Source: Candidatus Bathyarchaeota archaeon (lineage in GTDB: Archaea > Thermoproteota > Bathyarchaeia > Bathyarchaeales > Bathycorpusculaceae). From it: a stretch of DNA of 32,000 nucleotides. This document shows positions 131 through 16,585 of this stretch, piece by piece (position 1 is the stretch's first letter; the number at the start of each line of letters is the position of its first letter). The notes below the pieces were generated by a model. That model searched no databases. It saw only the letters and a program-made list of their open reading frames with translations, and was not told the DNA's origin. The stretch lies in the NCBI GenBank assembly GCA_026014705.1, contig JAOZHU010000034.1:12081-44080 (forward strand). The letters run 5' to 3'. Position numbers and translations under genes: made by a program.

Positions 131-216
131 CTATATAAAAGGGGATATAGACCACTCCGAGCACAACAGCGCCTATTTATAGTTTAAATAAGGGGCTATA
201 AATTTCTCAGCACGCG
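131..216. repeat. Left arm of an imperfect inverted repeat flanking the r-protein operon. It holds two tandem TATA-like/GGGG/CTATA units.
   Basis: 131-170 'ctatataaaaggggatatagaccactccgagcacaacagc' and 173-216 'ctatttatagtttaaataaggggctataaatttctcagcacgcg' both resemble the reverse complement of 3605-3697 ('acgctatttatagtatttaaaagggggctatagacaactcccagcacaaaacacgc'). Confidence 0.55.
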
Positions 217-217
217 T

Positions 218-622
218 TTACTTCAGCGGCACATACATCGAAGACCGAGAAGCACCGATACCAGGTGTACCATGCCGAACAGGCTTATTCGTAACCGCAA
301 ACTCGCCCAGATAATGCCCAATCATCTCAGGCCTTATCTCCATAGCCACAAACTCCTTCCCATTATGCACCATAATCCGAACACCAACCATCTCGGGAAG
401 AATAATCAAATCACGCACATGAGTCTTCAACGTCGCCTCCTTCCCAGCCTTCTGCGCCTCACGCACCACACGCAGCTTCTCCAGCAGAATCCTTTGCTCA
501 GGAGTCAAACCACGCTGCAAACTCCGCCTTTGACGAGCAGGCAACAAACCAATAAACTCATCCATAGACATCTCTAACAAACTCGCCAACGAATGACCAC
601 GATAACTGAAATCCTTCGGCAT
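218..622 (-). CDS. rps19: 30S ribosomal protein uS19 (S19p)
   Basis: 134-aa ORF with the S19/S15 core (...[24 protein letters not shown]...[20 protein letters not shown]...). It follows uL2 as in the conserved L3-L4-L23-L2-S19 order. ATG at 620-622, TAA stop. Confidence 0.95.
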
Positions 623-670
623 ACCCTACATCACCCTAAACCTAAACTTTAACCTCTATAAACCTTCCCA

Positions 671-1414
671 TCAACGAACAGCACGCTTCTTCTTCTGACC
701 AGGACCACGAGCCGCAATCAAACCCACCTTCTGACCAGGAGGCGCACCATGCGAAGTCGTCGTACACTTACGCGCACTACGCTTACTACTACCATACGGA
801 TGCGCCGCAGCCACCATCGCCCTGCCACGAGTCCTCGGATACTTGTGACCCTTAGCCTTCATCAAATGAAACACCTCACCAGCCTTCAAAAACGGCTTCT
901 CCGTCCGACCACCACCAGCAACCACGCCAACAGTAGCCAAACACAAATCAGAAACATAACGCGTACGACCACTAGGCAAACGAATCATAGCACCCTGCGG
1001 CGTATGCCCCACCACAGTCGCATAAGCCCCAGAAGACTTCGCCAACTTACCACCATCACCAGGCTTCAACTCTAAACCACAAACCAAAGTCCCCTCAGGC
1101 ATCTTACCCAAAGGCAAAACATTACCAACCTCAACCGAAGCCTTACCGCCAAGGCTAACCCGTTGACCCTTAGCTACACCCTCAGCAGCCACCAAATGGC
1201 AACATTCGCCACTGTCAAAGCGCACAAAAGCCAAAGGCGCACCGCGACCAGGATCATGCACTAAATCCTCAACCACACCGCTGAACACATCGTCAACACA
1301 ATCTTTAGGCGCAAACGAACGCGGATACAACGCAGCCGCAACACGCTTGTGAGTCGAAGCCCTGAAAGTCGAAGTACCACGCCCACGCCGCTGAACACGA
1401 ATCCGTCTACCCAT
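671..1414 (-). CDS. rpl2: 50S ribosomal protein uL2
   Basis: 247-aa ORF. N-terminus MGRRIRVQRRGRG and C-terminal ...HPYGSS...GAPPGQKVGLIAARG... are typical of L2. Operon position supports the call. Confidence 0.95.
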   Translation of the reverse strand: MGRRIRVQRRGRGTSTFRASTHKRVAAALYPRSFAPKDCVDDVFSGVVEDLVHDPGRGAPLAFVRFDSGECCHLVAAEGVAKGQRVSLGGKASVEVGNVLPLGKMPEGTLVCGLELKPGDGGKLAKSSGAYATVVGHTPQGAMIRLPSGRTRYVSDLCLATVGVVAGGGRTEKPFLKAGEVFHLMKAKGHKYPRTRGRAMVAAAHPYGSSKRSARKCTTTSHGAPPGQKVGLIAARGPGQKKKRAVR

Positions 1415-1441
1415 ACACCAACATCCTCCATAACAAAACTA

Positions 1442-1702
1442 TTACAGAATCCCCAGCTTGATAGCCACATCCGAAGCCCGAAACTCAGGCTTAAGCCTTA
1501 CAAAAGCCTTCTTCAAACCCTGCGGCGACACCAAAACCCGAACACTCTCCACCTTAACCTCATACAACTCCTCAACCGCACGCTTAACATCAGCCTTACC
1601 AGCCCGCATGTCAACCACAAAAATCAACTTATTATCCCGCTCAACCATCAAACTCGCCGACTCAGTCATCAACGGGTACAAAACAACATCCCCAACATCC
1701 AT
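1442..1702 (-). CDS. rpl23: 50S ribosomal protein uL23
   Basis: L23-like sequence (...VVLYPLMTESASLMVERDNKLIFVVD...KAFVRL...). I moved the start to the ATG at 1700-1702 (MDVGDVV...). It overlaps the rpl4 TGA (1702-1704) by one base (TGATG), which suggests translational coupling. Confidence 0.9.
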   Translation of the reverse strand: MDVGDVVLYPLMTESASLMVERDNKLIFVVDMRAGKADVKRAVEELYEVKVESVRVLVSPQGLKKAFVRLKPEFRASDVAIKLGIL

Positions 1703-2499
1703 CACGCAACCACTCCCACACTGCAAAGCTCACGCAAACGCTCAACCGCACCACGAGTCCAAACCGTCAAACGTCCCGCACAAGCGCCAGGCGCCAACAA
1801 CTCCGCATTCAAATCCCCAACCTTCACCACGCCCACACCAGGCAAATTACCAGCAGCCTCAACCAAACTACAATTCTCAGCAACCACAAACAACGGACCA
1901 ACAGCCTGCTTCATCTTACGCCCACGACGCTTGCCCTTACCAGCACGAATCTTGCGACTCGCACGCACACGCGAAACATCACCCAAAACACCCAAACGCC
2001 CAAGAACAGCCTCAACATCACGCGCCTTCCCCAACGCGCAGAAAGCATCATCCACAACCAAAGGAAACTCCGGAACACCCTCAACCGCATGCCCACGCGA
2101 AACCACAACATCGCGCGCTGCAGTAGCCGCAACCGCAGAAAACAAACCCAAACGAGCCTCCTTACTAGGAATCGCCTTAACAATACGCTTCGCAGAAACA
2201 GGCGGCTGCGGCTGCCGACCCCCAACAGTGCTGGGAGCAAAAGCTGCCCTGCCGCTTCCGCCTTTGATGCGGGGAACACGGGCAATTGCCATTCCTGTGC
2301 CGCGAGATTCGGCGCTTGTTCGTTTGCCAGCCATAGGGTCTCTGCCTTGAGGCTGCAGTCTGCGTGATTGGATAGATAATACGGCTCGTTTGATTACGTC
2401 TGGCCGCAAGGGTGTGGCGAAAACCTGTGGAAGCGTTATTGTGCCTACGGGTTTGCCTTCGAGGTTGTATATGTTGGCGGTTTTTTCTTTAGTGGGCAT
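1702..2499 (-). CDS. rpl4: 50S ribosomal protein uL4
   Basis: 265-aa ORF with the conserved L4 segment ...GRDPMAGKRTSAESRGTGMAIARVPRIKGG.... It lies between rpl3 and rpl23. Confidence 0.92.
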   Translation of the reverse strand: MPTKEKTANIYNLEGKPVGTITLPQVFATPLRPDVIKRAVLSIQSRRLQPQGRDPMAGKRTSAESRGTGMAIARVPRIKGGSGRAAFAPSTVGGRQPQPPVSAKRIVKAIPSKEARLGLFSAVAATAARDVVVSRGHAVEGVPEFPLVVDDAFCALGKARDVEAVLGRLGVLGDVSRVRASRKIRAGKGKRRGRKMKQAVGPLFVVAENCSLVEAAGNLPGVGVVKVGDLNAELLAPGACAGRLTVWTRGAVERLRELCSVGVVA

Positions 2500-2517
2500 T
2501 GTGTGTGTTCTCCATTG

Positions 2518-3531
2518 TTATTTTCCTTGAGGTGAATCCAGCGAGACGTAGGTGATTTGTGGTGGTTCTTCAGGTGTTTCTTTGGGTGGTCTTGCGGGGT
2601 ATCGTAGGCGTACTGTTCGTTTTTCGGTGCCTGGTACGCTGCCTTCAATTAGTATGTAGGGTCCTTTTATTGTGCCGTAGCGGGTGTAGCCGCCTTTGAC
2701 GGTGATTTCTTTGCCGTCTTTGCCGATTTTTAAAATGCGCTTGTTGTATTCTATGCGTTGGTGGTAGCCCATTTGTCCTGCTCTTGGGATGGAGTACATG
2801 AGGTGGTGTGGGTTCCATGGTCCGAGGGTGGCGATGCCGCGTTTTGTTTTTCTGCCTTTATGCTGCAGTTTGGTGACGTGCCAGCGTTTTACGGGTCCTT
2901 GGAAGCCTTTGCCTGTTGTGACTGCGGCGACGTCGATGTATTGACCGTTTTTGAATACTTCTTCGGCTGTGACGGTTTTTCCGAGGAGTTGCTTGGCGTA
3001 TTCTAGTTGTTGCGGGATTGTTGCGCCGCTGATTTGGATTTCGGTGATGTCGGGTTTCTTTTTGGAGAGGCTGGTTTGTTTGGGTTGCGTGGCAGCGATT
3101 ACGCGGAGCACAGCGATGTTTTCGAGTTGGTCGGTGAGTTTTTGGAGCATTTGTTCGGTGTCAAAGTTTTCCGGCAGCACAAGTGCGCGTTCGAGTTCGG
3201 CTGGCGGGTTTTTCATCCATGCCTCGGTTAAATGTTCAAGTCCATACGGTGTTTTTGTGTAGGCTCGTATGCCGAGTATGAGTATGGGTGGTGTTTCGAT
3301 TACTGTGGCGGCACGCATGACTTCTTTGCCGAAGTTCGGGCTGCGTTTTCGGTCTTCTATGGTGAAGATGAAGGTCATGCCTGCTTTGTAACCTGTGAAT
3401 GCTAAAAGCCTAGGTGTATCCGCGGTTATTTGTGGCCAGTAGCGTATGCGGGCTACGGGTTTTTTGGCGCGGTGTCTAGGCAAATATGCGAGTGAACCGT
3501 GTTTTGGGGCGTGTGTTTTTCTATGTCCCAT
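2518..3531 (-). CDS. rpl3: 50S ribosomal protein uL3
   Basis: L3 hallmark N-terminus MGHRKTHAPKHGSLAYLPR and ...TKGKGFQGPVKRWH.... Start moved to the ATG at 3529-3531 (10th codon of the track ORF). TAA stop. Confidence 0.93.
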   Translation of the reverse strand: MGHRKTHAPKHGSLAYLPRHRAKKPVARIRYWPQITADTPRLLAFTGYKAGMTFIFTIEDRKRSPNFGKEVMRAATVIETPPILILGIRAYTKTPYGLEHLTEAWMKNPPAELERALVLPENFDTEQMLQKLTDQLENIAVLRVIAATQPKQTSLSKKKPDITEIQISGATIPQQLEYAKQLLGKTVTAEEVFKNGQYIDVAAVTTGKGFQGPVKRWHVTKLQHKGRKTKRGIATLGPWNPHHLMYSIPRAGQMGYHQRIEYNKRILKIGKDGKEITVKGGYTRYGTIKGPYILIEGSVPGTEKRTVRLRYPARPPKETPEEPPQITYVSLDSPQGK

Positions 3532-3863: not shown

Positions 3864-4061
3864 TTAGTATCTTCGTGGGGGTCTTCTTTTTGTGTAGCAA
3901 TCTCGGCAGTATACTGGCCTGGTGCCGTCTGGTTTGAAGGGAACTTCGCATTCCTTTCCGCAGTCGGCGCAGGTTGCCTTGTGCATCTCTTTGCGGTACA
4001 TTTGTTCTGTTTCAACTCCTGTGTACTGTTCAGACAAAAATCGCTTTTTGCCAACCACCAC
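3864..4061 (-). CDS. Small zinc-ribbon protein of the CxxC-x17-CxxC type
   Basis: ...CADCGKECEVPFKPDGTRPVYCRDCY... has two CxxC pairs separated by 17 residues, followed by a basic tail. The start is uncertain (GTG at 4061 or ATG at 4001). Confidence 0.6.
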   Translation of the reverse strand: MVVGKKRFLSEQYTGVETEQMYRKEMHKATCADCGKECEVPFKPDGTRPVYCRDCYTKRRPPRRY

Positions 4062-4234
4062 TATAATCGCACACAGTATTAAACCTATGCATACAGAAAC
4101 AACAAACGTCCAACAAGTAACGCGTTCAAATTAGGCGAGGATTATAATTTGCAACATTGTATGCACCTAAGAAGAGTAAAAAGATGGGTTCATTAGTAGA
4201 ATAATCAATGCATGGGTGTCTTCTCTTCGGTGAC

Positions 4235-4852
4235 TCACAGTCTTGTTGCTTTCAGGAGGACTATTGTCTCGAAGAATGGCATAGCGGCTTCTGCAATTGC
4301 ACTTGCAGCGGAATGGCACTCCTCGAATGTTACTATTGTTTTATCTATAGATGCAAGTGTGGATTGCATTAAAAGAATTCGACCTTTTGGCTTCAAATGA
4401 TTTAAGGCTGCTGGAATAAATTGGTCGATGAGTTGTCTGCCTGTTGTGCCTCCTGTCCATGAGCGTTCAATCCAAGAAGCGCCTTCGTTCTCGTCTGTGG
4501 GCATGTAAGGAGCGTTGAAGAGAATGAGGTCGAACTTGGCTTTTTCGTTGAGTGATTTAAACAAGTCTCCCTGTACGAAAATCATTTTACTACGTACATT
4601 ATTGAGTGTTGCATTTTTTATTGCGTAATGTATAGCGTATGGATTAATATCGATTGCGACTACTTCGCTTGCTTTTTTAGCGGCTATTATGCCGAGTATG
4701 CCGCAGCCAGTGCCCATGTCCAGCACCCGTTCGCCTTCTTTCACGTCGAGGTTTTCGGCGAAGAGAAAAGAGTCTTCAGCGGGTTCGTATACGTTTTCAT
4801 CAACCACAAACACAAAATCTTCGAAAAACACACGTTTACGCCGTGAGGGCAT
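4235..4852 (-). CDS. HemK/PrmC-related (Mtq2-like) SAM-dependent methyltransferase
   Basis: SAM motif VLDMGTGCGILGI and a FNAPY (NPPY-type) motif. Start moved to the ATG at 4850-4852 (MPSRRKRVFFEDF...), overlapping the ksgA stop region by 17 nt. Confidence 0.75.
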   Translation of the reverse strand: MPSRRKRVFFEDFVFVVDENVYEPAEDSFLFAENLDVKEGERVLDMGTGCGILGIIAAKKASEVVAIDINPYAIHYAIKNATLNNVRSKMIFVQGDLFKSLNEKAKFDLILFNAPYMPTDENEGASWIERSWTGGTTGRQLIDQFIPAALNHLKPKGRILLMQSTLASIDKTIVTFEECHSAASAIAEAAMPFFETIVLLKATRL

Positions 4853-5654
4853 TAGCCAACGCTCCGAAATCTTTAGGCGCCAACTCGCGCACGCGGCGCT
4901 CACTGAACGGAACGGCGAAAGCGCGCTGTTTAGCTTCTTGCTTAGATAGTTTAAACGTGCTTTTCAGGAAGGGTTCAAGTGCATTAGCGAGCTTCTTGTT
5001 GCGCTGGTTGAACAGCCACCGCACAAGCGTTTTGAAAAACGCTGCGTCCTTCACTTCGAACGGCGCGGCTTGCCAAGGAGTTAAGCGCATGATTATTGAA
5101 TCCACTGCGGGCACAGGATAAAACAGGTCTTTTGGCACCGTGTCAAGCAACTCCACCTGCGCTCTGTGATGAGCCACAACCGTCAGCCATCCGTAAGCGT
5201 CACTGCCCACCGTAGCGACAAGCCGCTCAGCGAACTCCCGCTGCAGAATCAGCACTGCGCACGTAATTGTGCGTTCAAGAAGCCACAGCACTAAACGTGA
5301 GGACAGGTAGTAAGGCGGAATCGCAAGGGCTTTGTTGAACGGTGGCAACTCAGCTGTTAGCATGTCGCCTTCTATCACGGTCACGTTGCCAACGCTGCGG
5401 AGTTGTTCGCGCAATGCTTCGGCAACACGGGGGTCTTTTTCAACCGCTATTACGCGTTTGCATTTGTCTGCCAAGAAGCGCGTTAGGAAGCCGAAGCCTG
5501 CGCCAGCATCCAACACCACGTCCGCCTTGCTCACAGAGGCGTATTCGCTGAGTTGTTCGAAAACTGCGGGCTCAACCATGAAATTCTGCCCTAAAACCCT
5601 GTTCGGGACAATTCGAAACTTTCGAAGCAGCAGCTTCGCTTCATCAACACTCAT
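4836..5654 (-). CDS. ksgA: 16S/18S rRNA dimethyladenosine transferase KsgA/Dim1
   Basis: ...LGQNFMVEP...VLDAGAGFGFLT...AIPPYYLSS... are typical of RsmA/KsgA. Conserved archaeal neighbourhood with DUF655 and rpoF. Confidence 0.9.
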   Translation of the reverse strand: MSVDEAKLLLRKFRIVPNRVLGQNFMVEPAVFEQLSEYASVSKADVVLDAGAGFGFLTRFLADKCKRVIAVEKDPRVAEALREQLRSVGNVTVIEGDMLTAELPPFNKALAIPPYYLSSRLVLWLLERTITCAVLILQREFAERLVATVGSDAYGWLTVVAHHRAQVELLDTVPKDLFYPVPAVDSIIMRLTPWQAAPFEVKDAAFFKTLVRWLFNQRNKKLANALEPFLKSTFKLSKQEAKQRAFAVPFSERRVRELAPKDFGALANALTA

Positions 5655-5656
5655 AG

Positions 5657-6223
5657 CTAATGCTCACGCGTAAACAAGCGGTACTTACTGTCGCCCTCCA
5701 ACTCCTCCATCACACGTTTCGTAATCAGCTTCACAGGGCTAGGCAACTCAGTCCGCTTCTGCAAATCCTCATAACTCTCAAACGGGCGCCGTTCACGCTC
5801 GTTGATGACCTGCCACATGTACTTCTTTCCAATGCCCGGCACCAACTCCAAAGCATGCATCCGCGGCGTAATCGCACGAGCCGTGTTAAAGAAATTCACA
5901 AACCACTCTTCACGGTTCAACGCAATCCGCGTGATGACGCTGGGAAGCTCAGACTTCGCCGCGCCAGTCAACTCTTCGTAGCCTACTCTGCCGATGATGT
6001 ACGTGACTGCTTCACGTGACGCTTTGCCAACGTAGACGCGGTCACCAGCTTTAAGAATTAAGCCTTCCTTCACCAGCGCTTCCAGTAACGTGAAAAACTC
6101 TTCGCCGATGCATTGAATTAGGGCTCCCGCTCGGTAACCTGCCCTTCCAGCAGCCCTCAGCCCCGGGCGACCGTGCGGCAAGAAATCTAGCACGTAAGCG
6201 TACTCCTCGTATCGCTTCTCCAT
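5657..6223 (-). CDS. DUF655-family putative RNA-binding protein
   Basis: N-terminus MEKRYEEYAYVLDFLPHGRP and a C-terminal helix-hairpin-helix-like region. It is the classical partner of rpoF/ksgA in archaeal genomes. TAG stop. Confidence 0.8.
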   Translation of the reverse strand: MEKRYEEYAYVLDFLPHGRPGLRAAGRAGYRAGALIQCIGEEFFTLLEALVKEGLILKAGDRVYVGKASREAVTYIIGRVGYEELTGAAKSELPSVITRIALNREEWFVNFFNTARAITPRMHALELVPGIGKKYMWQVINERERRPFESYEDLQKRTELPSPVKLITKRVMEELEGDSKYRLFTREH

Positions 6224-6285
6224 GGCAGACCCTAATCTCCCTTATCATATCCGCATTCTGCTTAAAAATACTTGGGATAATCCGC

Positions 6286-6627
6286 CTATTCCTTCGCTAC
6301 GCGATGCTCGTTTAAGAGCGCAACGACTGCTTCCAGCTTCGCGGTTTCGATGATTTTGCGTCCGCCAGCCAGAAAAATCCGCAGCTCGTCCACGCTTTCA
6401 GGCGCACAGTTAACCACTTGAACAGCCTCGTCCTCGTCTAACCCGAACTCCTTAACTAAACGCTCCAGAAGCCCGTCAACCGCTGCCTCATCAATCTTGG
6501 CGAACTTGGAAACGTAATCAAACGTGCGCCGCTGATACTGGTCCAACGACTCCTCGCCCATCGCAGCTAACTCTTTCTTAACCTGCGGCAGCGTCAACTT
6601 CTTCTCGCTTAACTCTCTTGTGCTCAT
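6286..6627 (-). CDS. rpoF: DNA-directed RNA polymerase subunit Rpo4 (RpoF)
   Basis: About 113 aa, acidic and helical (...LTLPQVKKEL...QRRTFDYVSKFAKID...). Position between rpl21e and DUF655 fits. I chose the ATG at 6625-6627 rather than the GTG at 6639. TAG stop. Confidence 0.7.
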   Translation of the reverse strand: MSTRELSEKKLTLPQVKKELAAMGEESLDQYQRRTFDYVSKFAKIDEAAVDGLLERLVKEFGLDEDEAVQVVNCAPESVDELRIFLAGGRKIIETAKLEAVVALLNEHRVAKE

Positions 6628-6631
6628 GCGC

Positions 6632-6931
6632 TTAAACACCGCCCTTATACGGCTCTAAATGCTCAGAACGCACAATGATTTCCTTAACCGCGTCGCCCTG
6701 AGGCACGCTCACCACGTAACCGCGACCCCGCTTAGCCTGAACCGTGCCGATTTTACCGTGAAAACGCTTATGAGGCAAACTCTTCTGCACGCTGGAATCA
6801 ATCTTCACAATCACCTGCGAACCAACCTCATACGCTATCAACAGTTTACCAAGTTTCGGCTTACCCCTCTCCCTCGGCGCCTTCGTAGCTAACCGACGCG
6901 AACCACGCCTGTAACCCTTCGACTTCTTCAC
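6632..6931 (-). CDS. rpl21e: 50S ribosomal protein eL21 (L21e)
   Basis: MKKSKGYRRGSR...HKRFHGKIGTV...RGRGYVV... are typical of L21e. The GTG start at 6929-6931 overlaps the pus10 TGA (GTGA). Confidence 0.9.
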   Translation of the reverse strand: MKKSKGYRRGSRRLATKAPRERGKPKLGKLLIAYEVGSQVIVKIDSSVQKSLPHKRFHGKIGTVQAKRGRGYVVSVPQGDAVKEIIVRSEHLEPYKGGV

Positions 6932-10669: not shown

Positions 10670-11950
10670 TCATTTGCGTTTTCTGAAAAGCTTCTGGCCT
10701 TCCATTTCTGTCACGTATTCAAAGCCTACTTCTAAGAGTTTGCATGCTTCTTCAACGGTCGATGCGACTTTGACTATGTAGTCGTTGGAGCTTTCGCCGA
10801 ACGCCATCTTCTCCAAGTTGACGTAGATCTGCGTGGTGAGGACGCTTTTGTGCCCCAGCAGTTTTGAGATATAGAAGATGTCGGGTTTTTTGTGGTACTG
10901 CATTGTTGCGTACCAGTGGCGGATGAGATGGAAGTGTATCTTTGCGATGCGTGGATTGCTTAGTCGGTGAGCGATGCGCCTTCTCTGGTTGATCAGGCAC
11001 CATGTTGCGCTGCTTTTGTTCATTCTACCGAAGACCGTGTCGTTTTCTCTTCTCAGGTTGCTTAGCATGCTTATCAGCACTGTTGATACGGCGAAGACGC
11101 GGGGTAAGCTGTGTTTCTCTGCTTTGCGTAGCGTAATTGTGCGCATGTCAAAGTTTATGCATGCCCAAGTTAAGCTTAGGCATTCGCCCAGTCGCATTCC
11201 TGTTTCTTTCATCAGCTGCAGTAAGGCGCTGAGTCTTTTTGCTGAGCCGGTTATGAGTGCGTCGATTTCAGCTTCGGTTGGTAGGAATTCCGGCAGTTTC
11301 TCGATGTAGTCGTATTTTGGCGGTGCCCAAGTTTTGCCAAGGAACGTTAGAAATTTAGTGTAGGCGCAGGAGTAGACGAATTTTGTGTTTTCAACCAAGT
11401 TCATTTTTGCGAGGGCTTCTTTTACATTTTCAGGGTCGTTTATGTTGGCGTGTCTTGCAATGCTGCGGAGGGCAGTGTTGAAGGTTTTGACTGTTGAGTC
11501 GGATAAGCCGTCTTTTTGGCAGTAGAGCGCGAACTGGAGCAGTTTACCTTTGACGTCTGCATCAGTGATTTGCCCCATTCCCGCAACGGTTTTTGTTTCC
11601 GCTGCAGTTTCCAAATTTTTCGCTTCCTCGATGGTTGCGCATATTTGGCGTTTAGAAACTATGGCTGTCTCGGTATTTATTGACCATTTTGAATTTTCTT
11701 TTGGTGGTTTTTCGGTGAATCTGTAGTTGCAGTTCCTGCAGAGCCAACGCTGAAACACTGAACCATCAGGATAATAGCGTTGACCGTCACGGTAGAGACT
11801 GCTTAACCCGCACTCTGGACACGTAACGGCATGATCGGCTTGGTTGCTTGAAGTCTCGTGGCCATGCTGAGGCTCACCTTCTCGGTTAACTTTGCCCTTG
11901 AAGCGCAAGTGAGAAGATTCGGGGCTACTTGGAGCCTCAGCTTCAGCCAT
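10670..11950 (-). CDS. Tyrosine recombinase/integrase with N-terminal zinc ribbon
   Basis: CPECG...CRNCNYRF zinc ribbon. C-terminal catalytic region ...TGMRLGECLSL...HLIRHWYAT...LLGHKSVLTTQIYV... gives the R..H-x-x-R..H..Y pattern of XerC/D-like integrases. The ATG overlaps the upstream stop (TAATG). Confidence 0.9.
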   Translation of the reverse strand: MAEAEAPSSPESSHLRFKGKVNREGEPQHGHETSSNQADHAVTCPECGLSSLYRDGQRYYPDGSVFQRWLCRNCNYRFTEKPPKENSKWSINTETAIVSKRQICATIEEAKNLETAAETKTVAGMGQITDADVKGKLLQFALYCQKDGLSDSTVKTFNTALRSIARHANINDPENVKEALAKMNLVENTKFVYSCAYTKFLTFLGKTWAPPKYDYIEKLPEFLPTEAEIDALITGSAKRLSALLQLMKETGMRLGECLSLTWACINFDMRTITLRKAEKHSLPRVFAVSTVLISMLSNLRRENDTVFGRMNKSSATWCLINQRRRIAHRLSNPRIAKIHFHLIRHWYATMQYHKKPDIFYISKLLGHKSVLTTQIYVNLEKMAFGESSNDYIVKVASTVEEACKLLEVGFEYVTEMEGQKLFRKRK

Positions 11951-12137: not shown

Positions 12138-12281
12138 TTAGGCATCCTCCGATGGCTTTTCCTTGTGCTCGTAATCGTCGAGATGTTCATCCATGATCTG
12201 CCATGCTTCTTCTCGGGCAATCCGACGAATCAATTCAACGAGAAGCGCATGATCCACTTTTTCCTCAGTCAACTTTGCCAT
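12138..12281 (-). CDS. Hypothetical 47-aa helical protein (below the ORF-track cutoff)
   Basis: Hand translation gives MAKLTEEKVDHALLVELIRRIAREEAWQIMDEHLDDYEHKEKPSEDA. GGAGG lies directly upstream of the ATG at 12279-12281. TAA at 12138-12140. It sits inside the co-directional operon. Confidence 0.3.
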   Translation of the reverse strand: MAKLTEEKVDHALLVELIRRIAREEAWQIMDEHLDDYEHKEKPSEDA

Positions 12282-13290
12282 TCCTCCGTGAGCAGTTCAT
12301 TAGGCAAAAGCCAAGTTTGCGGATAGTTGCGCATCTATAGGGTCGATAATTTCGAGCCAAAAGGTCTCTGATGTAGTAGAGGCTTTTTTCAAAGCTGTAA
12401 TCGGTCTGGTTCTTGAAGAGTTCGGCGGTTTGCTCTGCAGAAAAGCCCTTGTTCAAGAATTCGGTGGCTATGGCAATCCGCATCCCATGCCCAGCAACGC
12501 CTGATAAATCAGCACACAGTGCCGCGTCAATGCAGGGTCTTATTTGCCCATGCCTCGCCGAGTTGTAACGGTAGGCGATCCGTCGGGTTTTCTGTTGGAT
12601 TTTGCTTTGGCATAGTCCGCAAAAATCTTCTGTTAACCCCTGCTCTTTAAATGGTGTTATGCAGTTCAGGATTAGGCTTTCTCGGTCTACGTTTACGGGT
12701 GTGCATGGTTTGAGGCTTTTTTCGTGAATCGAGTAAGGTACCCTTGCTAACCGCTTTATGTCACCTAGAACCTGTCGATCCAAGGTTTGGAATAAGAAGC
12801 CTTTAAGGAGCAGTTCCTATGCTGTCTGGTAGAACGTTTTTGCGGTTTGGGCTGAATCAAAGTGTTCTGTTTTTTGGAGCCAAACGTAGATGTTGTAGCC
12901 TTTCGAGCCGCTGAAGCATACAAGCGGTTTAACGCCGTAACTTTCTTGTAGCACCGTAGCAAGCGTGTTTGCTTCTTTCCAAGCAAGGCTAAGGTCTGGG
13001 CTGTCAAAGTCAAAGAACAGCTTTTCTACAGCGGAAACGCTGTTGCGTCCGTTGAAGGGTTGAACGCTCATCCAAGCCGGAGCACGATTCCTCATGCACC
13101 AAGCGAGGTATTCTTCGAAAGCTACGGGAGAGGTTAGGAAAACTCGGTCGCCATTGAAGACTTCCCGCCCATAATTAGCTGTCTGGAACCATGAACGCCA
13201 AAAGCTCTGATCCTGCAGTGCGTCTAAGTTTTGGTTAGTCGTGGTGTTCCCTCCATTCTGCCCCTGTAAACGTGCGCTTGAGCGCGTCAA
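12265..13290 (-). pseudogene. Archaeo-eukaryotic primase (PrimPol/PriS-like) fused to a PriL-CTD-like Fe-S domain, interrupted by one in-frame TAG (12817-12819)
   Basis: Upstream part: ...EKLFFDFDSPD... (DxD motif) and ...VCFSGSKGYNIYVWL... (motif II). After the TAG, in the same frame: ...LDRQVLGDIKRLARVPYSIHEKS... (motif III). Then ...RPCIDAALC...GHGMRIAIATEFLNKGFSAEQTAELF...YYIRDL...YRCATIRKLGFCLMNC, which resembles the 4-Cys PriL C-terminal domain. The start is uncertain (TTG at 13290, overlapping the helicase 3' end). Confidence 0.7.
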
Positions 13291-15214
13291 AGCATGAGGG
13301 GCATTTGCTTAGAACATCTCCCTGAGGCGTCACTACTTTGTATCCAGCTTTCTTGGTGCATGAAGAGCAATCGCTTGAAGTATCCTGCCAGTACACGAAA
13401 AGGTGCTTTGGTGGGGCTGCTGGGTCACGGGAGTCACGCAGGTCACGGTTTTCCTGCACGGTGAAGTTACTGCTTTGGGAAGAAGAAGACAAATCCCTGC
13501 CGCTACTGTTGTCTTCTTCTCTTTCTTTCTGCTCTGAAGTTGGATTGAAAGAAGAAAAAACGTCTCTGCTGCCAAAAATTGCTATTTTTTCTTCTTCTCT
13601 TCGCGGAGATAGTCCTGTGCTGTTTTCTTTATCGCGCATAAAAACCGTGACTCCCGTGACCTCCGTGACCAACTTATCTCTAAGAAGGCTCTGAGTTTGG
13701 AAAACGCTTTTTGGAACGTAGTCTACGATGAATTCTTTCAGTCGCTTCTCTAATCGTTCAGGTTCGAAGAAGATGACTCGGTATGATTTGCCGCCGTCTT
13801 TGATGAAGGGAGGTAACCCGGTGCTGGCGATGTTTAGGCTTTTGATTGCTTTGCGGATTGATTGGCTACTCCATTTGAAATGCAAAGCCAAGTCGGATGT
13901 GGTTAGGGGCTTGCATTCTAAACGTTCGTTTTGGTCTTGCCCTTCCGCGTCTGCCGCTTCTAGGAAGTAGTATGTGTTGGACTGCCAATGTTTAAAGAGA
14001 CCTTCGTTGATTTTTTCCCAGAAATAGTTGACGAGTAAGCCGTCCATGCTGTTGGTTTTTTCTTCAATTTTGAGTTTCTGAACTGCCCGGGCTGTTTCGG
14101 TTATGGTTTCTTTGAGCGTTGGCTCGTAGCGTGAAAGCGCCAAGAGCGGAAGCAAACTTGCAATTAAGCGGTGGTCGATTAGCTCGTCTATCCATGAGTC
14201 TTTTTTGATGGTTATCTCTTGGTGGTATCGCATGCGCAGGTAGAGGAGTTTGTTTTGGAACGCTAGGCCTTCTCTTAGCATTTCGTCGGTCTCTATGACA
14301 GGCAGACGCTTGTCGCTGGCTTCACTGTAGAAGGGTAGGGCGCGGCTTTCGGTGGCGTTGTCGTCAAAGGGTTTGCGCTGCGTCAAAATGGTTAAGCCGA
14401 AGTTGGTGAAGGTGTCCGTTATCCGCGGATTCTTAGGGTTCTGTCTGCTCAGTGGCGTTCCTGTGGCGCGGCAGTTAAGGAAATGCACAAGTTCGCTCTT
14501 CTCATTTGTGTTAGCAAAATCCGCCTCATCCAAAACTAGAGTTCCTTGCCAGAGATCTAGTGGACGGTAGAGGCTGGGGATTCTGTGCGTGGACATTTCA
14601 AAGTAGGGTCTGTAGCTGAGCGTTCTCAGCAGGAAGGCTAAGCGGTTTTTACCCGACTGGCTTGGTCCTCTTATGGGGATGATAGGCGCGAATTTGCCTG
14701 CGCCTGCCACGTCGTATTGGGGATTAGTGATGAAGCGGTCGAGGAACCATGAGCCCACGGTTATTCGGGTTAGGAGTCGTATCATGGCGTCTCTGCCGCA
14801 TGAATCGTAAGCTCTTTGGATGTATTCGTCTATCTCAGAGAAGACCTGTTTGAATGTGGTCTCGGTTACACCTGAAGGGAGCAGAACGAGACCTTTTCTT
14901 AGGGCATCGTTGTCTACGGGGCAGTAGATGATTTTTCTGCCTTTGCCGTCGACTTCGCCTAGGTCTATTTGGGCGGCTTGCTCAACCTTGCCTAAGCTGT
15001 AGTGGTAGATTAGGTATTGGGGTGGGTCTTTGCGGTTCCAGATTTCCTCAGCCAAAAAATCATCTGTAGCAACGGTTGGCTTGGGAATTAGAATCGTTTT
15101 TTCTATGTCTGCTTGGCACTTGGGGCACTTTTTGGCGTTGCGCTGTACTGATGCGCCGCAGTGTGGGCATTGGGTTTTATCCGGTTGACTGCTGCAGTGT
15201 TTGTTTTCTGCCAT
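13235..15214 (-). CDS. Putative replicative helicase/NTPase (SF3-like P-loop) with N- and C-terminal zinc ribbons
   Basis: CPHCG...CPKCQ at the N-terminus. Walker A is RGPSQSGKN and Walker B is LVLDEADF about 35 residues later, with a possible motif C (LTILTQ). A low-complexity linker follows, then C-terminal CSSC...CPSC. AGGAG lies 12 nt upstream of the ATG. Confidence 0.7.
   Translation of the reverse strand: MAENKHCSSQPDKTQCPHCGASVQRNAKKCPKCQADIEKTILIPKPTVATDDFLAEEIWNRKDPPQYLIYHYSLGKVEQAAQIDLGEVDGKGRKIIYCPVDNDALRKGLVLLPSGVTETTFKQVFSEIDEYIQRAYDSCGRDAMIRLLTRITVGSWFLDRFITNPQYDVAGAGKFAPIIPIRGPSQSGKNRLAFLLRTLSYRPYFEMSTHRIPSLYRPLDLWQGTLVLDEADFANTNEKSELVHFLNCRATGTPLSRQNPKNPRITDTFTNFGLTILTQRKPFDDNATESRALPFYSEASDKRLPVIETDEMLREGLAFQNKLLYLRMRYHQEITIKKDSWIDELIDHRLIASLLPLLALSRYEPTLKETITETARAVQKLKIEEKTNSMDGLLVNYFWEKINEGLFKHWQSNTYYFLEAADAEGQDQNERLECKPLTTSDLALHFKWSSQSIRKAIKSLNIASTGLPPFIKDGGKSYRVIFFEPERLEKRLKEFIVDYVPKSVFQTQSLLRDKLVTEVTGVTVFMRDKENSTGLSPRREEEKIAIFGSRDVFSSFNPTSEQKEREEDNSSGRDLSSSSQSSNFTVQENRDLRDSRDPAAPPKHLFVYWQDTSSDCSSCTKKAGYKVVTPQGDVLSKCPSCFDALKRTFTGAEWREHHD
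13423..13450. repeat. Iteron set 1: three GTCAC(G) units at a 9-nt period
   Basis: 'ggtcacgggagtcacgcaggtcacggtt', with GTCAC at 13424, 13433 and 13442. It matches the reverse complement of 13643-13670 at 23 of 28 positions. Confidence 0.6.
13643..13670. repeat. Iteron set 2: three GTGAC units at a 9-nt period, inverted relative to set 1
   Basis: 'aaccgtgactcccgtgacctccgtgacc', with GTGAC at 13647, 13656 and 13665. Confidence 0.6.
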
Positions 15215-15777: not shown

Positions 15778-15877
15778 TTTTGTTCACCTTTGTTTGCACA
15801 ACACTTAAGAGTAAAGTTGGCTGCCAATAGACTGCAAAGGTTCCAACTTGGAAACTCGAGTGTACGGAGGCATTTCT

Positions 15878-16585
15878 GTGTCGCATTACGAGAAAGCTGT
15901 GTTAGATTTGCTCAAAGAAGGACCTAAGCAGAGAAAAAGCCTTGTTGAGCAGTTATGCCCCAAAGTTATGTCGCAAAAGAAGCTGCAGAAAACGCTCAAT
16001 GAGCTTGAAAGTGCAGGTAAAGCGGTTAGCGTTTCCAGGCGGATGGAGGGAGGCAAGAACTGGACCACATGGTACATGTTGCCTGGGCAGGAGTACCTTT
16101 TGGATGTTGATGCCGCTCGCATCATCGCTGCTGTTGAGCGTTTGAAGCCGGTGTTGCTTAGGATGCCTACGGTTGATGAAATCGCCGTTGAATCAGGCAT
16201 CACGCCGCAGGAAGCTGAGAAGCTGGCCTTTAAGCTTGCAACTCAAACCGGCTGGTTCAACCCTGCGCCTGAACTTATCCGTGACGCAAGGATCAGGTTG
16301 GGGGAAGCGCTGGTTTGTGCTGTAAGAATCCGAGATAAGCATGTGGCGGAAGATGGCAAATCAGAAACCTTCGATTACGACGACGACCTCTGGGTTGTTG
16401 AGGAGGCTAAACGTTTTCTTAAAAATTATCCACATCTATTGCCTAAACTAGCCGACGACTGTGGCGAGGTTGTTTTTTGGAACCGAGAAGCGTTGAGGTT
16501 TCTTGGAGATAACTACGTCCCAAAAGAGAGGCAACGCCCTTTCTTAGTAGTTATTAATCGAGGTACTGGCGAAAGACTCCTGTAG
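15878..16585 (+). CDS. Winged-helix DNA-binding protein of the mobile element (divergent from the replication operon)
   Basis: N-terminal wHTH-like ...VLDLLKEGPKQRKSLVEQL...KTLNELESAGKAVSV... and a second HTH-like ...PTVDEIAVESGITPQEAEKLAFKLA.... Start set at the GTG at 15878, 7 nt after GGAGG. TAG stop. Confidence 0.55.
   Translation: MSHYEKAVLDLLKEGPKQRKSLVEQLCPKVMSQKKLQKTLNELESAGKAVSVSRRMEGGKNWTTWYMLPGQEYLLDVDAARIIAAVERLKPVLLRMPTVDEIAVESGITPQEAEKLAFKLATQTGWFNPAPELIRDARIRLGEALVCAVRIRDKHVAEDGKSETFDYDDDLWVVEEAKRFLKNYPHLLPKLADDCGEVVFWNREALRFLGDNYVPKERQRPFLVVINRGTGERLL

Follow-up and report, generated by a model that had tools for sequence, protein, structure and literature searches.

A conserved six-iteron module inside the replication ATPase gene of a bathyarchaeal integrated element: a candidate replication origin that covaries with one predicted wing residue of the encoded protein

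Why should coding DNA that specifies little more than a linker be laid out as two mirrored sets of short, evenly spaced repeats? The question is raised by a stretch of 32,000 nucleotides (the window) from Candidatus Bathyarchaeota archaeon (GenBank assembly GCA_026014705.1, contig JAOZHU010000034.1, positions 12,081 to 44,080), which carries an integrated element with its own replication ATPase. This protein of 659 residues is encoded by an open reading frame (ORF) at 13235–15214 on the minus strand, and the repeats lie within the 3' part of its gene. A preliminary description of the window had proposed them as a candidate origin of the element. We compared the module with 82 related loci fetched from Bathyarchaeia homologues (labels such as L001 denote loci and labels such as P0057 proteins). 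With a probability that we put at roughly two in three, the module is where the replication protein of the element (Rep) binds its cognate DNA and, most likely, where replication of the element begins.

The repeat is GTCAC, which occurs on the plus strand at 13424, 13433 and 13442 and is mirrored by GTGAC at 13647, 13656 and 13665, with a period of 9 nt in both sets. The pattern GTCAC-N4-GTCAC-N4-GTCAC, with at most one mismatch, has one match on each strand of the 32 kb window and none in 100 shuffled sequences; the two mirrored triplets reported in the preliminary description are thus real and lie beyond chance. The set that comes first in the coding direction (arm 1; 13645–13670, minus strand) comprises three 9-nt units (A/G)GTCACGG, and the distal set (arm 2; 13423–13448, plus strand) comprises three units (A/G)GTCACG(G/C) that converge on it. 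The units are asymmetric, GTNAC being followed by R and S. Six copies of the extended unit RGTCACGS make up the module, and elsewhere in the window it occurs as two scattered single copies (2.5 expected). The 28-nt arms match as an inverted repeat at 23 of 28 positions, the figure given originally, and this inverted repeat extends to 44 nt at 77% (13423–13466 and 13627–13670) with a perfect core of 16 nt. The ORF stays open throughout 13235–15214, again as first described, and reads VTEVTGVTV across arm 1 (VTEVTGVT for the array itself) and NRDLRDSRDP across arm 2, where NRDLRDSRD is translated in a frame other than that of arm 1. These peptides belong to residues 515–600 of the ATPase, between a predicted winged-helix (wH) domain and the C-terminal zinc ribbon. 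AlphaFold models this segment with a predicted local distance difference test score (pLDDT) of ∼30, consistent with disorder and with the low-complexity linker of the preliminary description. The module is the sole strong repeat structure in the element, where no other origin-like structure was found, and a scan of the window for the unit placed no iteron in the promoter region of the rep operon.

The same layout of two convergent triplets of a 9-nt unit recurs in every locus that covers the 3' part of the gene, and its place within the gene is constant in all homologues, even those of 50% identity or less. The first triplet begins ∼100–140 nt past the wing codons and the second 78–244 nt further on; depending on the locus, the module lies within the ORF, across its stop codon or after it. 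The unit consensus is GTNAC-R-S, in which N takes all four bases and is common to the three units of an arm. The N of arm 2 is complementary to that of arm 1 in 48 of the 49 loci with two arrays, the exception having two of its three units complementary, and in all 41 unique modules (28% expected), with all four pair types represented. In arm 1 this base falls at the synonymous third position of a valine codon. Arm 2 is read variously as VTxVTxVT, as R[D/H/N/Y]xR.., in the third frame (L055) or not at all, lying past the stop codon (L026, L011, L029 and L032), and arm 1 of L082 is read in another frame, as GD/SD/SD. The other cores that occur, GCTAC, GCCAC, ATTAC and GGCAC, each have a complementary partner, the peptide becoming AT.., IT.. 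or GT../VP... Run across the homologues, the comparison that had been suggested at the outset therefore shows DNA symmetry conserved while reading frame and peptide change. As judged from the sequences, the conserved feature is the DNA and not the peptide.

The identity of N is in turn predicted by a single residue of the ATPase. Covariation was assessed in 41 proteins over 511 alignment columns, with 31 cluster representatives for label shuffling. The column of residue 470 carries 1.90 bits on the class of the module (its base N) and is the sole one of the 511 with zero conditional entropy. C occurs with Phe (13 of 13), G with Arg (6 of 6), A with Leu or Gln (7 of 7) and T with Val, Ser or His (15 of 15). 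All 31 cluster representatives fit this code, a result that 100,000 label shuffles never equalled. The window conforms, with Phe470 (codon at 13805–13807, minus strand) and GTCAC. At the peptide level alone, Phe accompanies RDxRDxRD in 19 of 19 proteins. The DNA bore out two blind predictions, namely GTTAC/GTAAC for P0057, which has Val, and GTGAC/GTCAC for P0104, which has Arg. Residues met subsequently extend the code (Ile with T; Thr, twice, with C), which in full reads Phe/Thr for C, Arg for G, Leu/Gln for A and Val/Ile/Ser/His for T. The pairings of Arg with G, Gln with A and Val or Ile with T agree with the amino-acid/base preferences of known protein–DNA complexes.

The tree implies 12 class changes (Fitch), and residue 470 differs in all 11 close pairs of unlike class, the proteins of which are ∼10–25% diverged. 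One clade has SNF, SNR and SNV at this site, other clades have PPF, PAF and PDF, and Arg is also found in PFR and PSR. Since the local wing sequence tracks the clade and residue 470 tracks the class, convergent point substitutions are indicated rather than swapped cassettes; cassette swapping is an unlikely source of the link, as the wing context follows the clade and only one of the 511 columns is fully predictive. Two further residues, 472 and 477, seem in a few cases to track the first two bases of the core: K472 is replaced where the core begins with A, and 'KNY' accompanies GC and GG cores.

Residue 470 stands at the start of a predicted β-hairpin wing (strands 471–473 and 476–478) in a wH domain that AlphaFold2 predicts at residues 439–495 (coding region 13730–13900, minus strand; pLDDT ∼90), with helices at 439–446 and 450–460. 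Covariation shows the predicted wing of Rep itself to be the probable reader of the central base pair of GTNAC. The resemblances of this domain, all weak, are to winged-helix DNA binders (AdcR, MarR/ST1710, TcpK-oriT and TFE-alpha): a profile search of the PDB matched AdcR (E = 0.006), and the best Foldseek matches are nearly all winged helix–turn–helix or related DNA-binding proteins (E only 0.07–0.5). The rest of the protein consists of an N-terminal zinc ribbon, Walker A (GPSQSGKN) and Walker B (LVLDEAD) motifs, the linker that holds the module and a C-terminal zinc ribbon (residues 601–659) modelled at pLDDT >88. The label 'helicase' was attached to it because of the Walker motifs, the gene neighbourhood and the fusion of homologues to a primase–polymerase (prim-pol); in P0020 and P0022, for example, an N-terminal prim-pol domain is joined to the ATPase. 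A homology search returned 212 proteins at E ≤ 0.001, with Bathyarchaeota/Bathyarchaeia as the named sources. The phage collection contained no annotated relative, and the plasmid collection gave one match, a hypothetical protein of 24% identity on the Haladaptatus plasmid NZ_CP085334.1, which is the only annotated relative.

These observations are best read as Rep-specific iterons that act as an origin resembling those of staphylococcal pathogenicity islands (SaPIs), the plasmid pRN1 and phage λ. The architecture matches these experimentally defined origins, and firing at the module is inferred by analogy with them. By analogy with SaPI Rep and pRN1 ORF904, several Rep subunits would bind each triplet through their wH domains, so that two Rep assemblies would stand head-to-head on either side of a centre that measures 192 bp in the window and ∼60 bp in most relatives. 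The DNA between the two assemblies would then be opened, the P-loop ATPase would load itself and the prim-pol of the element would prime synthesis. Because a disordered linker tolerates almost any peptide, the same DNA could be translated in any of the three frames, or not translated, and differing central bases would give related elements private origin specificities. The short distance from the wH coding sequence to the site downstream of it may also favour action of the protein in cis, on the DNA from which it was expressed.

Several results weigh against this interpretation. Both initiation and binding by Rep are argued from covariation and analogy, and the fold matches of the wH domain are weak (E from 0.006 to 0.5). 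The ATPase matches no helicase family of Pfam, NCBIfam, PHROG, PDB or BFVD in profile and Foldseek searches, and its Walker A/B core (residues 177–294) is modelled at pLDDT <50 despite 83 aligned sequences. The 9-bp spacing of the iterons does not match the helical repeat. Nor is the centre AT-rich family-wide (mean GC 0.444, compared with 0.431 in the 600 nt of gene upstream of the module); its GC content falls below that of the upstream gene in only 17 of 42 loci, and the module thus lacks a classical DNA-unwinding element. The prim-pol gene in the window contains a nonsense codon, which means that this element may be decaying and that this copy may no longer fire. Finally, L080 (P0049) has the sole irregular module, with GTTAC, GTAAC and GTTAC in arm 1 and GTCAC, GTCAC and GTAAC in arm 2; its protein has Cys at the position of residue 470 (wing motif DLPSCVKV), and the locus may represent relaxed specificity or decay.

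The closest parallel in arrangement is found in the SaPIs, in which the C-terminal winged-helix domain of Rep binds two opposed sets of penta- or hexanucleotide iterons, 6–12 in all (PMC9371898). The SaPI origin lies at the 3' end of rep in non-coding DNA, its iterons flank an AT-rich centre and a primase is adjacent or fused (PMC9371898). The bathyarchaeal module shares the predicted wH domain of an ATPase, the opposed short iterons, the 3' position in the gene, the primase neighbour or fusion and, to judge from covariation, the specificity for its own Rep. It differs in that SaPI iterons lie downstream of the ORF, whereas the bathyarchaeal iterons are usually inside it and are read in varying frames, and in that the SaPI centre is AT-rich and the bathyarchaeal centre, across the family, is not. 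The host is archaeal, and the ATPase has no detectable sequence relationship to known families. No description of a one-residue/one-base specificity code was found for SaPIs in the literature searched.

Among archaeal elements, the Sulfolobus plasmids provide the pRN1 origin, a stem-loop of ∼100 bp located 3' of orf904, which encodes prim-pol, superfamily 3 (SF3) helicase and winged-helix modules (PMC4234260). Origins of this type have an inverted repeat of ∼21–27 nt and a centre of ∼58–62 nt just past the end of the wH-encoding replicase gene (PMC4234260). The bathyarchaeal dimensions are similar (arms of 27 nt and a median centre of 62 nt), and here too an archaeal mobile element has prim-pol, ATPase and wH modules, which are fused in some homologues, and keeps the symmetry of the site while its sequence varies among relatives. 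The pRN1 element, however, lies outside coding sequence and has been presented as a structure rather than as iterons, whereas the bathyarchaeal arms are three tandem 9-bp sites in which stem pairing is not what is conserved, the positions between the cores being non-complementary. The bathyarchaeal ATPase is, in addition, not recognised as SF3 by Pfam, although Walker A and B are present.

The position inside the gene recalls phage λ. Ori-λ sits between the two domains of its initiator, and iteron specificity diverges alongside the initiator among its relatives. In the lambdoid phages the initiator-binding iterons lie inside gene O (PMC5043065), just as the bathyarchaeal module lies inside the ORF of its presumed initiator, in an interdomain segment. 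In the λ origin, an O dimer binds each of four 19-bp iterons, which are themselves inverted repeats, and a 40-bp AT-rich tract lies on one side, whereas the bathyarchaeal units are asymmetric, 9 bp long and arranged in two convergent triplets without a flanking AT tract. O, which is no ATPase, relies on P to recruit the host DnaB, whereas the bathyarchaeal protein is itself the presumed motor. The preliminary description knew of no origin inside the replicase linker of an archaeal integrative element. Within the literature searched this stands for archaeal integrative elements, and the searches gave no description of the bathyarchaeal family or its origin; the principle is nevertheless known from ori-λ, SaPI and pRN1. 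What is new is an archaeal integrative element that would combine these known origin traits, together with the variable-frame translation of the iterons and the residue–base code.

Rep might alternatively bind the iterons for regulation and not for initiation, in copy-number or incompatibility control (handcuffing or titration), as a transcriptional roadblock or operator acting on the genes downstream, or at a partition-like site. Covariation speaks to binding and not to function, and the lack of an AT-rich centre, the presence of extra arrays of non-cognate class that could be decoys (L034/L035, L037/L042/L043 and L017; see below) and the location of the module, always upstream of the next gene, would all suit such a role. 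That next gene varies, however, being a prim-pol, an integrase-like gene, another gene or a gene on the opposite strand; the promoter region of the rep operon is free of iterons, and the two stray single units in the window agree with the number expected. Proven origins, moreover, have this very arrangement, with two sets converging at the 3' end of an ATPase–wH gene that is associated with a primase, and the element offers no other origin-like structure. A regulatory or incompatibility role is less likely than an origin role, and we consider it improbable overall. The narrower proposal of an operator for the downstream prim-pol is weakened by the same variation of the downstream gene and by the iteron-free promoter region.

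A different kind of explanation is that the arms pair with each other over a distance, either in the mRNA or as single-stranded DNA (ssDNA), and that the resulting stem is what is selected; a stem-loop like that of pRN1 would be the ssDNA or cruciform version. A 264-nt stretch does fold better than shuffled sequences (z = −6.1 as ssDNA and −7.0 as RNA), the arms covary and the pRN1 origin requires an intact stem-loop of similar size. An inner symmetric box adjoining the iterons also fits pairing. In the window it spans 13449–13466 beside arm 2 (TTTTCCTGCACGGTGAAG) and 13627–13644 beside arm 1 (CTTTATCGCGCATAAAAA), each the symmetric partner of the other. Across the family the box is ∼15 nt long, reads roughly TnTATGCGGTG at +27 to +41 from the first core in all modules and is more symmetric than expected. 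Its two copies agree at 9.4 of 16 positions within a locus and at 6.5 of 16 between loci, without G:U bias, and a double compensatory change distinguishes L033 (CACGGTGAG/CTTACCGTG) from L045 (CACGACGAG/CTTGTCGTA). Compensatory pairing is nevertheless confined to this box and the iteron core. A 3 × 3 comparison of the units of the two arms gave diagonal identities of 0.54, 0.57 and 0.48 and off-diagonal identities of up to 0.65, and the spacer positions between cores, compared unit by unit and position by position, are complementary only at the level of composition, with no preferred register. The mismatches show no sense-strand G:U bias (39 versus 66, and 59 versus 82). Since the spacers are non-complementary and G:U pairs are not in excess, the symmetry of the arms is attributable to six copies of one oriented site. 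A stem would not need all three units to share N, cannot account for an amino acid encoded ∼140 nt upstream that predicts N, and finds no Rfam match in the window. We judge selection for a stem quite unlikely; cruciform extrusion after Rep binding is compatible with the cognate-site interpretation.

That the repeats reflect selection on the peptides (VTxVTxVT and RDxRDxRD), neutral low-complexity or slippage sequence homogenised by gene conversion, or insertion of a miniature inverted-repeat transposable element (MITE) is very improbable, for although VTxVTxVT is nearly invariant in the first 26 homologues, repeats are frequent in low-complexity linkers and the module has terminal inverted repeats, the synonymous valine third base is fixed per locus and complementary between arms, arm 2 is read in three frames or untranslated and arm 1 also varies in frame and peptide (L082; AT, IT and GT), which contradicts peptide-level selection, and the same gene position in all homologues, with no other copies in the window and no target-site duplication seen in the flanks, speaks against a MITE.

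The centre of the module in the window contains two GAA/TTC hairpins, as the preliminary description had reported. Hairpin 1 (13481–13520) has a stem of 13481–13492 paired with 13509–13520 and a 16-nt loop; hairpin 2 (13549–13596) has a stem of 13549–13560 paired with 13585–13596 and a 24-nt loop. Both stems are perfect over 12 bp, and the two hairpins are direct-repeat copies of each other with a period of 69–78 nt. They do not hold up as a general feature of the module: they are confined to the closest relatives of the window (≥82% identity) and absent from the modules of all other clades. L001, L003, L020 and L022 have them, L002 has lost hairpin 2 by deletion and L025 lacks both. The stems are invariant, so covariation is uninformative about them. 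To judge from this distribution, the hairpins are a clade-specific insertion, an add-on rather than a defining part of the module, although they may ease local opening where the GC content is 0.38 (13500–13599). With ∼0.48 for the element as a whole, that region is mildly AT-rich, and to this extent the A/T-rich core originally described is found in the window; it is not a property of the family. The centre has a median length of 62 nt family-wide and spans 111–213 nt across the clade of the window.

A broader proposal, about which we are evenly divided, is that these loci form a large bathyarchaeal family of integrative replicons with a six-iteron origin inside the replicase ORF and a near one-to-one code between wing residue and base, switched convergently at least a dozen times. 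If this is true, specificity switching would yield mutually orthogonal replicons able to co-reside, and the duplicated 63–66-nt segments with arrays of another class (L034/L035 and L037/L042/L043) would be fossils or intermediates of switching. In the literature searched, neither an origin or replicon nor a genetic tool is described for Bathyarchaeia. The module would provide the group with its first testable replicon parts: a candidate origin of ∼120–250 bp with a cognate initiator for a whole family of integrated elements. The recognition rule makes a direct prediction, that replacement of Phe470 by Arg, Gln or Val should shift the site from GTCAC to GTGAC, GTAAC or GTTAC, and could be used for building orthogonal replicons. 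The loci also appear to offer a natural example of overlapping codes, in which a putative protein-binding sequence persists whether it is translated in one of three frames or not at all, and of how initiator and origin specificities diversify, with incompatibility of co-resident elements as the likely driver. For annotation, a pair of period-9 GTNAC triplets beside the end of a wH-encoding gene may serve to flag this type of replicon.

Additional triplet arrays of a non-cognate class were observed in L034/L035 (3824–3980), in L037/L042/L043 (4196–4220 in L037) and in L017 (1059–1085). They lie in tandem segments of 63–66 nt, which in L034 follow the order C (arm 1 type) and then A, C and G (arm 2 type). 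These arrays may have been left by past specificity switching, may be intermediates of it, or may serve as decoys. Elements of different class are also found together. In L046, a 5'-truncated second element (170–2886, minus strand) stands head-to-head with an intact T-class element (3989–6879, plus strand), and the remnant keeps the 3' end of the helicase gene with a G-class iteron module, the prim-pol and the integrase. The metagenome-assembled genome CAYMLF01 holds the elements L001, L005, L006 and L007, of classes C, A, A and T, and the metagenome Ga0080004 holds L037, L038 and L046, of classes G, C and T. Such co-occurrence fits diversification driven by incompatibility but is only suggestive, since binning limits its weight.

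In the window, the ATPase gene is followed by the prim-pol gene (12265–13290, minus strand), which has an in-frame TAG at 12817–12819. Intact homologues have Gln at this position (...YQTA*ELLLKG in the window compared with ...ATAQKLLLKG in L046), and the TAG is either a nonsense mutation, making the gene a pseudogene of a decaying element, or a read-through or recoded codon. The tyrosine integrase of the element is encoded at 10670–11950 on the minus strand (PF00589, E = 7.5e-20). Direct-repeat searches for attachment sites or borders gave no convincing pair, and the window contains no tRNA gene. An IS110-family transposase gene (PF01548 and PF02371; 16812–17906, plus strand) lies just past a wH gene of the element (15848–16585) and may mark or disrupt its far border.

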